Positions 30,371-37,219 of a stretch of DNA of 64,000 nucleotides are shown here, piece by piece. The stretch is from a virus: positions 15,941-79,940 of IMG/VR virus record IMGVR_UViG_3300024978_000004. One strand, 5' to 3'. The translations under genes were made by a program, and so were the position numbers. How positions within the stretch are numbered: the first letter of the stretch is position 1; each line of letters opens with the position of its first letter. The notes beneath the pieces are model-generated. The model ran no database searches. It worked only from the letters and a program-made list of their open reading frames with translations, and had not been told where the DNA came from.

Positions 30371-30811
30371 TTATTGAGGTTGTACCTTACGAATAACTTT
30401 ACGTGTTTTGTGATACTTTTTAACCACATGACGTTTTTTCTGTTGTTTTTCGATTTTGGGTGGCGGTTTAAGACTGTTTATACGGTCCTCTTCCATTCGT
30501 TTCATATCTTCCAGTAAGTTGTTGTAGCCCACAGTTGTACATTGATTATAAAAATTTGTATATGTGTCGGCAGGATTTTTTGTTTTAAGGTAAAAAGCTT
30601 CCTGTTTAATACGTTGAAATGGAAATGTGACCGCTACAGGTTCACCTGTAAAAGAATCAATATCCGGCAAGGTTACACCCATGTCGCGTAGAGTTGCTAC
30701 ACTACGTGCATATGCACCTACCTTATCACATTGAGTATCGATGTGTTGTTGTGGGAACCCAGCACATCCTGTTAGTAACACTACGATTCCAATCGATAGT
30801 AATTTTAACAT
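30371..30811 (-). CDS. Lipoprotein
   Basis: Lipobox LTGC; basic C-terminus. Confidence 0.7.
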   Translation of the reverse strand: MLKLLSIGIVVLLTGCAGFPQQHIDTQCDKVGAYARSVATLRDMGVTLPDIDSFTGEPVAVTFPFQRIKQEAFYLKTKNPADTYTNFYNQCTTVGYNNLLEDMKRMEEDRINSLKPPPKIEKQQKKRHVVKKYHKTRKVIRKVQPQ

Positions 30812-30820
30812 ACAGTTCTC

Positions 30821-31162
30821 CTATTTAATTAATAATGTGTCGTTTGAGCAACACGATTTTAATTTTTCATACACATCAGGCATGACGTTGATGCATCCAT
30901 TCGTTATGGTTCTATCTCCAACATTTCCTGACATCAACCGGTCCATTCGGTGCTGCGTTGGATTTAACAAATAAACACGATGGATTGCATACCATTCTGT
31001 GGATGTTTCTTTAAATTGTAACACATCACCACCATAACCTCGTTGTTCTGTAATAAGTTGATGAATTTGAAATTCACCTTTTGGTGTATGTGTACCAATT
31101 AATGCTGGATAGCACGAATTAGCAAAACAAATTGTTGCTGTGATTAGATTAACTATAACCAT
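30821..31162 (-). CDS. YkuD-like L,D-transpeptidase domain protein
   Basis: YAIHRV...TNGCINV catalytic-type motif; start re-called to ATG 31162. Confidence 0.65.
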   Translation of the reverse strand: MVIVNLITATICFANSCYPALIGTHTPKGEFQIHQLITEQRGYGGDVLQFKETSTEWYAIHRVYLLNPTQHRMDRLMSGNVGDRTITNGCINVMPDVYEKLKSCCSNDTLLIK

Positions 31163-31170
31163 AATACGAT

Positions 31171-31193
31171 AAAAAGGGGGCAACCCCCCTTTT
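31171..31193 (-). terminator. Rho-independent terminator ending the riboswitch-led transcript
   Basis: Minus strand GGGGG..TTG..CCCCC followed by TTTTT, immediately after the 31192 stop. Confidence 0.7.
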
Positions 31194-31587
31194 ATTCTTT
31201 ACCCTTCTTTACTGGAACCTCTTTATAAATCACAATTGGTACCGCCGGAACAGGCTTTTCCGTGACATGTGGTCGAATATACAAATATTCCCCCCGTCCA
31301 AGTTTTGGAGCCCAGTTGTAACTGTCACACTTCAACGTTGTTGACTCTTTCGCGCAATCAACATCGACAACACGAGGCCAAATTGTTGCAGCAGTAGGAA
31401 ATCCAGGCATGTATTGTGGAGCATGGTACATACCATCCATCACTGGTGGGGCTTGTTCTACCCCAACTTCACCAGGAGTTCCCGAACCAAGCGGTGTGCG
31501 GACGATGCTAACATCTGTTGCTAATGCCACTTGAGAACATGCCAATGCAGCTAACAACGTCACTACCCTAATATCTTTTGTATTCAT
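31192..31587 (-). CDS. Exported protein (signal peptide)
   Basis: MNTKDIRVVTLLAALACSQVALA signal; ...YHAPQYMPGFPTAATIWPRVV.VDC...C; RBS AAGGAG. Confidence 0.75.
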   Translation of the reverse strand: MNTKDIRVVTLLAALACSQVALATDVSIVRTPLGSGTPGEVGVEQAPPVMDGMYHAPQYMPGFPTAATIWPRVVDVDCAKESTTLKCDSYNWAPKLGRGEYLYIRPHVTEKPVPAVPIVIYKEVPVKKGKE

Positions 31588-31615
31588 GTGCTTCTCCTTT
31601 TAGAAATAAGTCAAA

Positions 31616-32362
31616 TCACTTATCGTCTTTGGTTGGGCACTTAAAACCAGTTTCTTCAAGAGCTTCTTTGTTGAGATCATCCATACACATACGGGCCATA
31701 GCCGCAGCCTTGAATCCCATATTCCACATTTCACGGGAGTTCTTCAACATTACACAGTTTTTGTCAGACCACGTAGAGCCGAGATTGATTCCGAATCCAG
31801 GAACTGAAATACCGCCACTAGACGAACCCATACAGGTATCATTGGAACTAGTTAATGCAGAGGCACTAACATCAGGTGTATTACGAATCGTTACTTTGCT
31901 GGGACTCGTAAAAGTGACATTTTGTGAGGCATTGTTGGAATTAGCGTTTGCGCCGGCGCCTACGGAACCGCCACTAACGTCACCAACTGTTGCATTGACG
32001 TCACCCACTTTGGCGGATGGAGAAAAGTTTCCGCCGCCATTACCAACAGAGGAATTTCCACTATCTTTAACGGACGAATTACCACCCGCGACGTTACCTA
32101 CCGATCCACCTGCTCCACCAATACCAACTCCCACCCCAACTCCAAAGCCGGTTGCGGTCGAACTTGAACTCGATGATGAACTTGAACTCGACGATGAACC
32201 ATTGGAACCGCCATTACAACTATTGCCTTGACAATAGTGAGTGTTGGTATGAGTGTTGGTTTTGGTATCACCATGTTTGCCGTTACCGAGGGGTTGGGTT
32301 GCGAAAGCCGAGCCGGAGACAAGCATAGCAGCTAATGCAACTGCAAGTAATGTTTTATTCAT
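31616..32362 (-). CDS. Exported Ser/Gly-rich protein with Cys-containing C-terminal domain
   Basis: Start re-called to MNKTLLAVALAAMLVSGSAFA (AAGGAG RBS); poly-Ser/Gly linker; C-terminal domain with 4 Cys. Confidence 0.8.
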   Translation of the reverse strand: MNKTLLAVALAAMLVSGSAFATQPLGNGKHGDTKTNTHTNTHYCQGNSCNGGSNGSSSSSSSSSSSSSTATGFGVGVGVGIGGAGGSVGNVAGGNSSVKDSGNSSVGNGGGNFSPSAKVGDVNATVGDVSGGSVGAGANANSNNASQNVTFTSPSKVTIRNTPDVSASALTSSNDTCMGSSSGGISVPGFGINLGSTWSDKNCVMLKNSREMWNMGFKAAAMARMCMDDLNKEALEETGFKCPTKDDK

Positions 32363-32398
32363 TTGTAAATCTCCTTTAATTGAAATTAATGGAAGACT

Positions 32399-32486
32399 CA
32401 CGGTAATTCCCGCTGCCATTGAAGTTACTCTTTAGGCCGGTGAACTTTGTGCCCCAGTCTTTCGAACTGGTATACCCTTTACATGT
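32399..32486 (-). promoter_or_regulatory. c-di-GMP-I (GEMM-I) riboswitch aptamer
   Basis: CATGTAAAAGGGTATACCAGTTC-GAAA-GACTGGGGCACAAAGTTCACCGGCCTAAAGAGTAACTTCAATGGCAGCGGGAATTACCGTG: GAAA tetraloop in P2, CCUAA...AUGG receptor in P3, and G20/A47/C92 equivalents intact relative to Vibrio Vc2. Confidence 0.88.
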
Positions 32487-32538
32487 ATTCTTCTTGTTTT
32501 ACTTACCCTTTCGCGGAATGCAAAAGGACAATATTAAT

Positions 32539-32567
32539 ATTGTATTTCCAATATCTTAAAAAGTCAA
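32539..32567 (-). promoter_or_regulatory. sigma70-type promoter driving the riboswitch leader
   Basis: TTGACT (32567-32562), 17-nt spacer, TACAAT (32544-32539). Confidence 0.8.
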
Positions 32568-33124
32568 CAGTCTATAATTGACCACATCTCACTGCTAATA
32601 TAACTCAACAATTGCTGGAATCTGTTTTCTTTTTGTAGATTAAAAACAGGAATTTTGTAGTCGTCAGCAATTCGTATTGCTTGTCCAGTCCCACCCGTAC
32701 CAACAGTTGTTTGTGATCCTTGTTCCACACCATCTTGTGTCCAACACACAACTAGTTTAACAGGGTCATTGAGATTGGGACCCAGTACTTGATACCCATT
32801 GCGTGCCATAAGTTTTCGTGCAAATGGTGGCAATATTTTCCAAGTGGGGTGATATTTTTCAGCTAAATCAAACGCTTCATCTGTAAGGTTATATAAAGAA
32901 GAGGTACTATTGTTAAATCCTCTTGATGGCAGATATATTTCTTTATTCCCACCAAATTGGTCATATGCAATCTCAAACGCCAGGTCGGCGCCGTCGGCGC
33001 CACCTGATCGCAACACCCAATTTCTTTTTGCTAACAAAGAAGAAATAGCAATAATCTGTTTAGTTGCGTGTGGAGGTGTAGAACGACTACCTATTCCAGC
33101 AAAACTTATAACACCGTTACTCAT
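32564..33124 (-). CDS. SLOG-superfamily (DprA/Smf-like) protein
   Basis: FAGIGSRSTP...LRSGGADGADLAFE...GGTGQAIRIA. Confidence 0.8.
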   Translation of the reverse strand: MSNGVISFAGIGSRSTPPHATKQIIAISSLLAKRNWVLRSGGADGADLAFEIAYDQFGGNKEIYLPSRGFNNSTSSLYNLTDEAFDLAEKYHPTWKILPPFARKLMARNGYQVLGPNLNDPVKLVVCWTQDGVEQGSQTTVGTGGTGQAIRIADDYKIPVFNLQKENRFQQLLSYISSEMWSIIDC

Positions 33125-33323: not shown

Positions 33324-34295
33324 TTAATCTTCGATATAAACGTGATCGATGTGGTGTAGAACAAACAACAACATAATACTCGATACCAACATCAACAGAG
33401 GATTGAACAGCCAACACACAAACGGAATAGAAAGATAATAGCTCCTCATACCAAGACTATAATAAGCACCGCCCCTATTAAGAACTCGTGACACATAATC
33501 ACTGTCGATATACGGCGATTTACAGTTGACCAAATAACCTACGTGGTTGAACATTCGTACGGACAAAGTGAACATAAAGAAGGCGGTAAATAACGTGAAC
33601 AACAACGGCCCAACCTTGAAAGCATGTAACGCTGAATGTTGAGACGAAACTGCAATTGCATCTGATACTGTGCCAAAGTGTGAAATGTTCAACACTCCAA
33701 TTATCAACAAGATTGCTGTAGATGCTAAAAATGTCGCAGCCATTGTTGAATTTCGTAGTGTTTGCACTGCCAACACCTCAAAGTTATCGTGTGACATAAT
33801 GGACCGAACCCACGCGGAACGGGCTTGAGTGGTAATAGTTTGGAAAGTTGAATATGATGGGTCTTTACGAGTTCGGACATAAACCACTATATGATATCCA
33901 GCTAACAAAACAATACTAATGGAAAATAAAATTAGGTTACGATAGTGTCCCCACACTACATCAATAACTGTTTTCTGATGCCGCTCAAACGTAATGACGG
34001 GTGGGGGCTGATTTTTACTTTTCATTAGAGTTTGAGCATATTCGCTGCCATTTTTAGCAGCAAGGCCAATCCATTTATCCGCCATCACAGCGTCGGGTTT
34101 GAGACCATATTCACCACTTTGATATGCCAAACCAAGCATTAACTGTCCTTTTCGATCGCCACTATCCGCAAGATTTTGCAAAACTGCCAGGTCAGATTTG
34201 TTAATATCAGCTTGATTTCTAGGTTCGAAAATATAAGCGGCTGTAATTACAGCAATCATTACAGCAATGAATGATAGAGTTTTAAGATGTTTCAT
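33324..34295 (-). CDS. Sel1-repeat plus DUF599 membrane protein
   Basis: N-terminal TM; Sel1-like LADSGDRKGQLMLGLAYQSG...KWIGLAAKNG; DUF599-like AR.AWVRSIM...LAVQTLRNSTMAATFLAST. Confidence 0.75.
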   Translation of the reverse strand: MKHLKTLSFIAVMIAVITAAYIFEPRNQADINKSDLAVLQNLADSGDRKGQLMLGLAYQSGEYGLKPDAVMADKWIGLAAKNGSEYAQTLMKSKNQPPPVITFERHQKTVIDVVWGHYRNLILFSISIVLLAGYHIVVYVRTRKDPSYSTFQTITTQARSAWVRSIMSHDNFEVLAVQTLRNSTMAATFLASTAILLIIGVLNISHFGTVSDAIAVSSQHSALHAFKVGPLLFTLFTAFFMFTLSVRMFNHVGYLVNCKSPYIDSDYVSRVLNRGGAYYSLGMRSYYLSIPFVCWLFNPLLMLVSSIMLLFVLHHIDHVYIED

Positions 34296-35845: not shown

Positions 35846-37219
35846 TTACATAGTGCTGTTTGCTCGCACTTCATCGAACGTATATTCCCTAACAATTTTT
35901 CCATTAACGAATACAGTTTCAAGTGCATCAACCACTCCAGGTGTTTCAATGTCAGAAAAATACCCACCATCTTCACTCTTATACAGAGTAACACGCCCCT
36001 TCTTCGACCGCTTGCCAACATCGGTAACAGGATCCTTATACACATCAACCCAGTTTCCATCAATGCACGCTGCAGACGTTTTCATCGCAAATTTCAAAGT
36101 GTCGCGGTTTACCTGTTGAAGCAGTGCTCCACCCATACCAAAAGCAACGTTGTCAGCACTATATCCAGCAAACTTCAATGTACGAAGAATCGATTTAATG
36201 CTACCCTCATTGATTCCATCGCCCTGAATAACACGTACTACCGGATTAAGAACTTTATATCCCTTCTCATTCACTGTTGATCCAAATGCAGCATCAAGTG
36301 CTCGGACAACCTCACACACGACCGAAGCAGGATCACCACTATCGGGGCGAATAACAACAGTAGCACCACTATCAAGCACTTCTTGTTTCAGTTCTTTACC
36401 CCACAGATTTGTGACGGCATTGAGAATGTCGTACGAATCACTAACAGCCGCAAACATCTTGCCTTTGCCACCAAACTGTTTAATCATGTTGCGGTAAGCA
36501 TCAACCTCGTTTTTACGACCCCACGACGTGTAGGAGCTGTGTTCACCAGCCGGAATCGAGTAACCAGGCATACCAATTGCATTGTAATATTTCTGTGCAA
36601 AACGAATACCCGATACAGTGTCCGACCCCATAAAGTTGACCAAGTGGGCAGCGCCGCCAATACCAGCACTTTCAAAGGAACTAACGCCACGGGCGCCAAA
36701 ATCATGCAGTTTGAACGACAGACCTGCAGGATCACCAGTCTCTTCTAATGCTGCACGAATCACTTGCTTGATGCTCCAACTATTGGTAGCAACAGTCGTA
36801 CCATACCATACAGCACGAAGAATTGCAGGCTCGATATACGACGTCAGCCAGAAACATTTGTCGTCAGTGTTTTCAACGGTAACAAGTACGTTTTTTGTAC
36901 CGAGGACCATACCTTCAGGAACGGCACGGACAACAAGAGGTAGATAACCAGCGTATTTGTCCACAATATACTGCCATCCGGCTCGGTTAAACGGTTCACC
37001 GTGAGCAGCGAAGAATTCATCAGCTTCTTCAATCATCTCTTGAGTGACGGGCTTTGTCAGATATTCCTTTAAGAAAATTTGAAGACCGAACATAACGGTT
37101 TTGTCATATTCGCCGCCTCGAGACTCAATGTAAGAGAACACTTTGGTGGTATTGGGTGGATATTGAAGAAAGTGTGATGCTTTGTATGAATCAGTATTAA
37201 GAATAATGTTTGTTTCCAT
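35846..37219 (-). CDS. nadV: Nicotinamide phosphoribosyltransferase (Nampt)
   Basis: NTDSYKASHFLQYP, KLHDFGARG, GEHSSYTSWG, VSDSYD, VIRPDSGDP, VIQGDGI, AFGMGGALLQ. Confidence 0.93.
   Translation of the reverse strand: METNIILNTDSYKASHFLQYPPNTTKVFSYIESRGGEYDKTVMFGLQIFLKEYLTKPVTQEMIEEADEFFAAHGEPFNRAGWQYIVDKYAGYLPLVVRAVPEGMVLGTKNVLVTVENTDDKCFWLTSYIEPAILRAVWYGTTVATNSWSIKQVIRAALEETGDPAGLSFKLHDFGARGVSSFESAGIGGAAHLVNFMGSDTVSGIRFAQKYYNAIGMPGYSIPAGEHSSYTSWGRKNEVDAYRNMIKQFGGKGKMFAAVSDSYDILNAVTNLWGKELKQEVLDSGATVVIRPDSGDPASVVCEVVRALDAAFGSTVNEKGYKVLNPVVRVIQGDGINEGSIKSILRTLKFAGYSADNVAFGMGGALLQQVNRDTLKFAMKTSAACIDGNWVDVYKDPVTDVGKRSKKGRVTLYKSEDGGYFSDIETPGVVDALETVFVNGKIVREYTFDEVRANSTM

Follow-up and report, generated by a model that had tools for sequence, protein, structure and literature searches.

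A 64,000-nucleotide stretch of phage DNA (hereafter the window), taken from IMG/VR virus record IMGVR_UViG_3300024978_000004, was found to carry on its minus strand an aptamer of the c-di-GMP-I (GEMM-I) riboswitch class, which recognizes the second messenger cyclic di-guanosine monophosphate (c-di-GMP), in the leader of an operon that begins with two genes for exported proteins. The arrangement recurs in nine other phage contigs, in which a GEMM-I aptamer is placed in the same way ahead of a homologous operon, and in all ten leaders the aptamer is followed by a hairpin that sequesters the Shine-Dalgarno (SD) sequence of the first gene. In addition, a purine tract immediately upstream of the aptamer is complementary to the anti-SD strand of this hairpin, and the two pairings exclude each other. 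This last point goes beyond the first-pass annotation of the window, which had described the aptamer and the sequestration of the SD and gave no polarity of switching. The riboswitch itself is judged with high confidence to be genuine, and the explanation as a whole, that is, a functional c-di-GMP-I switch that would turn on the translation of an operon of envelope proteins, is given a probability of about 0.6.

The leader is roughly 170 nucleotides (nt) long and is composed of the following parts, in the direction of transcription.

32539..32567, minus strand: sigma-70-type promoter, TTGACT-17 nt-TACAAT, 10 of 12 consensus matches
32507..32527, minus strand: 5'-proximal leader hairpin, present in the minimum-energy and centroid folds
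32487..32497, minus strand: purine tract AAGAAGAAU, complementary to the anti-SD; proposed 5' strand of an extended P1 helix
32399..32486, minus strand: c-di-GMP-I (GEMM-I) aptamer, identified by RF01051, its homologues and compensatory pairs
32367..32398, minus strand: expression platform from folding, with anti-SD UCUUC, AU-rich inner hairpin and SD GGAGA

The aptamer was identified by cmscan against Rfam 15. The match to RF01051, at 57.5 bits and an E-value of 1.3e-8, spans model positions 1-87 of 87 and lies well above the gathering score of 35 bits, which is the outcome that the first-pass annotation had set as its own check by an Infernal search of the minus strand. At the gathering thresholds of Rfam, the window gave two matches only, one tRNA and the RF01051 element, and the latter is the sole GEMM-I in the whole of the IMG/VR source record (135,483 bp). 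The element lies on the sense strand of a leader and is joined to an expression platform, with a promoter on one side and the SD and ATG of gene 1 on the other, as is expected of RF01051.

All of the features earlier listed point by point for this aptamer were recovered in the RF01051 alignment. In the numbering of Vibrio cholerae Vc2, G20 is present as an unpaired G ahead of the closing G-C and U-A pairs, A47 stands next to the closing C, the interhelix position C44 is present, and C92 is located within the 3' ACC. The roles of G20, A47 and C92 in ligand contact are established for Vc2 (PMC4744006, PMC5888326). The closing pairs in the window are G21-C46 and U22-A45, the latter being a compensatory replacement of the consensus C-G pair (C22-G45 in Vc2). 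Helix P2 is capped by a GAAA tetraloop, and P3 includes the CCUAA...AUGG receptor and the AG bulge, both aligned to the consensus; the GNRA tetraloop/P3 receptor architecture of RF01051 is thus present at the level of sequence, and its docking is predicted. The equivalent of Vc2 G20, which is A in the GEMM-Ib type, is G in the window and in eight of the nine relatives, the remaining one (contig L007) having C. P1 of the window is short, consisting of 4 bp (CAUG/CGUG) with a G-U pair. An in-frame ATG at 32419, within the aptamer, yields a 267-aa reading of gene 1 that is chosen by some gene callers (as seen in L003). The credible start is the previously proposed ATG at 32362, with AGGAGA located 7 nt upstream, while the ATG at 32419 lacks an SD and shows no conservation among the relatives.

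Conservation of the leader, for which a search in related phages had been suggested, was examined on the contigs of the closest relatives of genes 1 and 2, each tested with RF01051. The aptamer was present in every close relative for which the upstream region was available, with the following scores.

L007: 77 bits
L028: 64.2 bits
L141: 60.2 bits
L097: 59.2 bits
L026: 58.2 bits
L142: 58.2 bits
L009: 54.6 bits
L093: 53.2 bits
L029: 34.9 bits, 0.1 bit below the gathering score

The operon proteins of these aptamer-bearing relatives are only about 45-60% identical to those of the window, so that the relatives represent distinct lineages, although the independent ones are few, about six. The order of promoter, 5' hairpin, aptamer, SD-sequestering hairpin and ATG was kept in the leaders. 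By RNAalifold analysis of eight phage aptamers, a small and related sample, double-sided compensatory changes were detected in six of the 16 predicted stem pairs, located in P2, in P3 and at the 22-45 pair. The promoter of the window was found where it had been placed before; promoter-like sites across the region are no commoner than in shuffled sequences, and six of eight related leaders have a comparable site, likewise with a 17-nt spacer, at a distance of 44-60 nt before the aptamer. At the 5'-proximal place, the relatives have a hairpin of unrelated sequence, for which a role in mRNA stabilization is possible. The aptamer of L007 (L007:2876-2958) has the best Rfam score and yet carries UC in place of the GG that all others have at the equivalents of Vc2 G19-G20, while L141, which is close to L007, retains GG. 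The ligand pocket of L007 is therefore altered, and its ligand preference may differ.

The platform helices were folded leader by leader with ViennaRNA, because the MAFFT alignment of the platform was too gapped for a reliable structure string. In the minimum-energy fold of the window leader, UCUUC is paired with GGAGA (z = -2.9), as the first-pass annotation had supposed, and the anti-SD begins 2 nt past P1. An SD-sequestering hairpin was formed in ten of the ten leaders, with an outer helix between a pyrimidine tract and the SD, and with inner stems of lineage-specific sequence. Since the inner-stem sequences differ while the hairpin is kept, comparative support for SD sequestration is good. 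No U-run or intrinsic terminator was found after the aptamer in the leader, and this, together with the distance of 2 nt between P1 and the anti-SD, indicates that control is most likely exerted at the initiation of translation.

When the SD was constrained to be free, the upstream tract paired with the anti-SD and enclosed the aptamer in the minimum-energy structure of eight of the ten leaders. The sequences that form this alternative pairing are as follows.

Window, L093 and L007: upstream tract GAAGA, anti-SD UCUUC
L097: upstream tract GAAGAA, anti-SD UUCUUC
L009: upstream tract AGAUUC, anti-SD GAAUCU
L141: upstream tract AAGAAA, anti-SD UUUCUU
L029: upstream tract GUAAC, anti-SD GUUAC

The upstream tract covaries with the anti-SD in L009, L026/L028, L029 and L141, and L029 forms the enclosure by an entirely different sequence. 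In L097, the SD-free fold showed no enclosure but a 6-bp duplex, GAAGAA/UUCUUC; the canonical P1 is almost absent from this leader, and the duplex stands in its stead. Pairing of the purine tract with the anti-SD and pairing of the anti-SD with the SD are mutually exclusive. In the ligand-free calculation, the sequestered form was favored by 4-9 kcal/mol in eight leaders and by 5.5-10.5 kcal/mol in the other two. GEMM-I aptamers bind their ligand with picomolar-to-nanomolar affinity, and a gap of 4-10.5 kcal/mol could be within reach of this binding energy.

Based on these pairings, the following sequence of events is proposed. The operon would be an early operon of a jumbo phage, transcribed by the host RNA polymerase with the class-I riboswitch in its leader, and the riboswitch would act on the translation initiation of gene 1 and thereby on the operon. 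As long as the ligand is absent, the local hairpin UCUUC/GGAGA would form and translation would be off. Upon binding of c-di-GMP, the aptamer would close and P1 (CAUG/CGUG) would be extended by the pairing of GAAGA with UCUUC; the extended P1 would capture the anti-SD, leading to the release of the SD and the onset of translation. The envelope proteins would then be produced mainly in hosts of high c-di-GMP level, that is, in the sessile cells of flocs and biofilms. The ON polarity, as judged from the leader sequences, stands at slightly better than an even chance.

Several observations weigh against this scheme. When the upstream tract is shuffled with its composition preserved, 2-16% of the shuffles, depending on the leader, pair equally well with the anti-SD (the Fisher combination of these results over five lineages is about 0.001), and a purine tract is in itself not unusual within an A-rich leader. 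A ligand-bound aptamer with a P1 of only 4 bp would be sterically compatible with the sequestering hairpin, which makes the polarity uncertain. Furthermore, thirty other viral contigs have the gene-2 family but no GEMM-I, among them several Comamonas proviruses and two complete genomes (350 and 385 kb), and the aptamer is thus not required for the cassette. The steric point leads directly to a genuine c-di-GMP switch of the opposite polarity, in which bound ligand would leave the anti-SD free to mask the SD so that expression is off at high c-di-GMP, and in which part of the unfolded 3' half of the aptamer would compete for the anti-SD in the ligand-free state. Indeed, the sequestering hairpin, 2 nt past P1, could coexist with folded P2 and P3 when the upstream tract was forced free, and a weak GGGA/UUCC pairing between the 3' half of the aptamer and the anti-SD is possible. 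The Vc2 element of tfoY is an OFF switch. Cd1 is also included among the characterized GEMM-I OFF switches (PMC4744006). The candidate anti-sequestor pairings of this arrangement are, however, only 4 bp long and not conserved, and the purine tract, conserved and covarying with the anti-SD, would be left without a role; in L097, moreover, almost no P1 exists besides the helix of purine tract and anti-SD. The OFF polarity is for these reasons considered unlikely, though at a level that must be taken seriously.

The translational ON switch was also weighed against a different ligand, a different level of control and a loss of function. The element might sense another cyclic dinucleotide, such as 3'3'-cyclic GMP-AMP (3'3'-cGAMP) produced by the cyclic oligonucleotide-based antiphage signaling system (CBASS), or be promiscuous, in which case the phage would read a defense signal. 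GEMM-I and GEMM-Ib are said, in work of Kellenberger and of Nelson from 2015, to differ mainly at position 20, and the UC of the best-scoring aptamer, that of L007, indicates that the pocket varies within the phage family; the combination of G20 and C92, the signature of c-di-GMP, is nevertheless present in the window and in eight of the nine relatives, and a different ligand appears improbable. A similarly low probability is given to control of transcription or of the fate of the mRNA, in which the aptamer would govern Rho-dependent termination or the access of ribonuclease and the SD hairpin would be constitutive. Long leaders often show Rho effects that are coupled to translation, and the predictions place the SD-sequestering hairpin in every state in which it is not displaced, but the leader has no intrinsic terminator, and the abutment of aptamer and anti-SD in ten of the ten leaders is the classic layout of translational control. 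Lastly, the aptamer would be a decaying relic of a captured host cassette, its regulation lost, if the scarcity of aptamers among the viral contigs with the gene-2 family and the score of L029 just under the gathering score were taken as signs of decay. Such a relic is very improbable in view of the full length, the intact contacts and the compensatory stems, kept across lineages that have diverged to about 45% protein identity, and the sampled bacterial homologues of the cassette are devoid of GEMM-I, so that those clades did not supply the aptamer along with the cassette.

The bacterial side of this comparison was as follows. No GEMM-I was detected at E <= 0.05 upstream of the chromosomal homologues in Janthinobacterium sp. 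Marseille, in Polaromonas and in an Oxalobacteraceae assembly (L010; Herminiimonas is suggested by its source name), nor was any present anywhere in 36 bacterial genomes that carry a gene-2 homologue (Variovorax, Comamonas, Polaromonas and others). As a positive control, the same search was run on 151 genomes of the class, of which 25 had GEMM-I, and on 151 of the order Burkholderiales (GTDB), of which 68 had it above the cut-off, often in multiple copies, and the negative result for the 36 carriers is therefore meaningful. Joint acquisition of cassette and riboswitch from a Comamonadaceae-like host was considered and, for the sampled genomes, rejected on these grounds. The GC content of the cassette, 44-49%, is only slightly above the approximately 40% of its flanks, and there is thus no sign of recent transfer. 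Since the bacterial carriers are without GEMM-I while the control genomes have it, the pairing of sensor and cassette looks like a feature maintained within the phage lineages rather than a passive import. The conservation of this pairing across several very large phage lineages, in engineered as well as natural waters and always before an operon for exported proteins, together with bacterial copies that have no GEMM-I, suggests that the phages themselves assembled the combination and have kept it under selection.

Wider searches gave few further members. No relatives of the locus or of the leader were found by megablast and blastn among 50,697 GenBank phages, and no related loci for gene 1 were found in IMG/VR. 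A DNA pattern specific to the aptamer retrieved only two already known contigs from IMG/VR and none from the metagenome contigs of the Joint Genome Institute (JGI). By an exact-pattern scan, the canonical GEMM-I core was present in 32 of 2.9 million IMG/VR contigs (L103-L134), one of which, L130, is the 234-kb contig IMGVR_UViG_3300037692_000137. The genes 3' of six high-scoring Burkholderiales GEMM-I aptamers offered no useful parallel.

The operon downstream of the leader has the following organization.

31616..32362, minus strand: gene 1, 248 aa, exported, phrog_20531; signal peptide, Ser/Gly/Asn-rich middle, four-Cys C-terminal domain
31192..31587, minus strand: gene 2, 131 aa, exported, of a conserved uncharacterized family; two invariant Cys, mostly beta
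31171..31193, minus strand: GC hairpin and five-U run after gene 2, -16 kcal/mol
30821..31162, minus strand: gene 3, 113 aa, YkuD-like (L,D-transpeptidase fold), phrog_38499 (E 1e-41), GC(I)N motif
30371..30811, minus strand: gene 4, 146 aa, lipoprotein with lipobox LLTGC, followed by a strong terminator

The hairpin with its U-run had been taken by the first-pass annotation as a terminator that limits the unit to two genes. The structure is present, but the limit probably does not hold, and the unit is likely to include four genes, since the order of signal-peptide protein(s), ORF2, YkuD-like protein and lipoprotein is constant in the relatives, the start of the YkuD-like gene overlaps gene 2 in some of them (TAATG), and gene 3 of the window lacks a promoter or SD of its own. 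The hairpin is present after gene 2 in L007, L009 and L097 and absent in L093, L026 and L028, in which the overlap is found instead. We regard it, with reasonable though not firm confidence, as a partial terminator that sets the stoichiometry inside a four-gene module. In the window, gene 3 starts 8 nt after the U-run, with no recognizable SD or promoter, and its reading frame is stretched by gene callers to a TTG inside the hairpin (31183).

Both of the first two open reading frames (ORFs) begin with typical Sec signal peptides, as read from the translations (ends AFA/T and ALA/T), in agreement with their earlier description. The C-terminal domain of gene 1 is conserved over about 100 aa and contains four Cys residues, three of which are invariant in the family alignment. 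The families of gene 1 and gene 2 are large, uncharacterized and co-occur on the same contigs; tblastn of gene 1 against GenBank phages gave only distant matches to the C-terminal domain, in Pelagibacter and Ralstonia phages. For neither protein was a match that indicates a function obtained in Pfam, NCBIfam, PHROGs, the PDB sequence search or the ESM Atlas. Structure prediction, which had also been recommended, was informative in part: the AlphaFold2 model of gene 2 has a predicted local distance difference test score (pLDDT) of 75.6 and is mostly beta, its fold matching only its own family in the AlphaFold database and none in PDB, while the model of the gene 1 C-terminal domain is poor (pLDDT 50.6). 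Because Melnitz-type phages carry curli genes, the Gly/Ser/Asn-rich part of gene 1 was also considered as curli-like, but family searches gave no support and the idea was dropped. The match of gene 3 to YkuD (PF03734) is weak, 16.5 bits against a cut-off of 23.4 (E 0.013), with the GC(I)N motif and an upstream His visible, and no match by sequence was found in PDB. As all four products are predicted to be exported or anchored by lipid and one of them, albeit by a weak YkuD match, has the fold of a peptidoglycan enzyme, remodeling of the envelope is a reasonable guess for the operon; exclusion of superinfection, or a defense of cells in crowded flocs against lysis from without, would be speculation.

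The source record is an IMG/VR viral contig with an estimated completeness of 56%. A protein identical to gene 2 is encoded on contigs of up to 346 kb, and the same locus is present on contigs of 110 and 265 kb; the occurrence on the 346-kb contig identifies a jumbo phage. The phage has a major head protein of the gp23 type known from T4 (phrog_138), with its nearest cultured relatives, at about 28% identity, in the Rak2-like/Asteriusvirus jumbo phages, and the former designation as a T4-like jumbo phage is thus correct as to size and applies only in the widest sense as to T4. Other phage genes include an RnlA-type RNA ligase, thymidylate synthase, PhoH and Nampt, in addition to several large ORFs with no PHROG match. 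The DNA has been found in bioreactor and wastewater metagenomes of nine studies; a look for RNA sequencing runs with this region returned none.

Among known systems, the closest in the aptamer itself are Vc2 and Vc1 of Vibrio cholerae (RF01051; numbering of PDB 3IRW), which share the GAAA-capped P2, the P3 receptor, G20/A47/C92 and C44. The element of the window differs from them by being phage-borne, by U-A instead of C-G at 22-45, by the 4-bp P1 with a G-U pair, by the proposed outer helix of purine tract and anti-SD, and by the exported-protein genes under its putative control. Vc1 is an ON switch. Its regulation of gbpA expression has been reported to be dose-dependent (PMC4744006).

GEMM-I aptamers on phage DNA are likewise present in the Clostridioides difficile prophages PhiCD119 and phiCD630-1/-2, the former having been named in the first-pass annotation in agreement with McCown et al. 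2017 (PMC5473149), in which riboswitches are rare in phages and only two c-di-GMP-I examples, both from C. difficile phages, are given. The C. difficile case concerns temperate prophages of a Gram-positive host, with switches tied to lysis, toxin-antitoxin or abortive infection (Abi) modules (PMC7699646, 10.1101/2025.04.15.648962). The case of the window concerns a wastewater jumbo phage with a size of 346 kb or more, with an SD-sequestering platform typical of Gram-negative hosts, an envelope-protein operon and several lineages. Metabolite sensors of large virulent phages are also known as the glutamine riboswitches of marine myophages (Melnitz, Mosig and cyanophages), which differ in aptamer class, ligand and regulated genes. 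No glutamine riboswitch was detected in the host genome by the authors of that work (PMC9004378), just as no GEMM-I was found in the cassette-carrying bacterial genomes, and for a virulent phage whose riboswitch is missing from its host these myophages offer the nearest parallel. In the later literature on phage c-di-GMP riboswitches, as far as it could be searched, only C. difficile prophages were found, and that on riboswitches in jumbo phages or viromes contained nothing relevant, in line with the earlier statement that such a unit is undescribed.

What appears to be new is a conserved GEMM-I family in jumbo phages of presumably Gram-negative hosts, with a probable ON platform and an operon for predicted envelope proteins. 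More tentatively, and with considerable doubt, a probably virulent jumbo-phage clade of wastewater and freshwater Gram-negative hosts may have captured a c-di-GMP ON switch that drives a four-gene module for envelope remodeling or superinfection exclusion in infected cells of the sessile, high-c-di-GMP state, where cells are crowded and phages abundant. If this is true, a lytic virus would make a state-dependent decision by means of an RNA that reads the second messenger of the host directly. If the switch works as proposed, it would represent a simple, testable case of a virus tuning its program to the biofilm/motility state of the host, would offer a functional handle on two widespread uncharacterized protein families, and would add a compact natural c-di-GMP-responsive translational ON element.

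The surroundings of the operon include some further genes of interest. In relatives (L007, L009, L093, L095 and L096), the operon is flanked by genes for Nampt and for NAD kinase and NADAR, and in the window the Nampt gene (35846-37219) is located about 3.5 kb from the operon. No functional link between the riboswitch module and the NAD genes was found; a paper of 2025 connects c-di-GMP with the biosynthesis of NAD via NadR (PMC12421817). In the chromosomal loci of Janthinobacterium sp. Marseille (L005:430-3435) and of the Oxalobacteraceae assembly (L010:1-2176), a gene-1C/gene-2 pair is situated directly 3' of a large autotransporter gene and is followed by two more uncharacterized genes of about 245 aa. 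The window also encodes, on the minus strand at 33324-34295 and two genes ahead of the riboswitch operon, a membrane protein of 323 aa that matches DUF599 strongly (E 1e-51) and has an N-terminal Sel1-like repeat, an unusual cargo for a phage. Between this gene and the operon, a gene for a DprA-like/SLOG-type protein (32564-33124, minus strand; phrog_768, E 8e-52) has its end precisely at the -35 element of the promoter that precedes the riboswitch, and homologues of this protein occur in more than 1,000 GenBank phage records.

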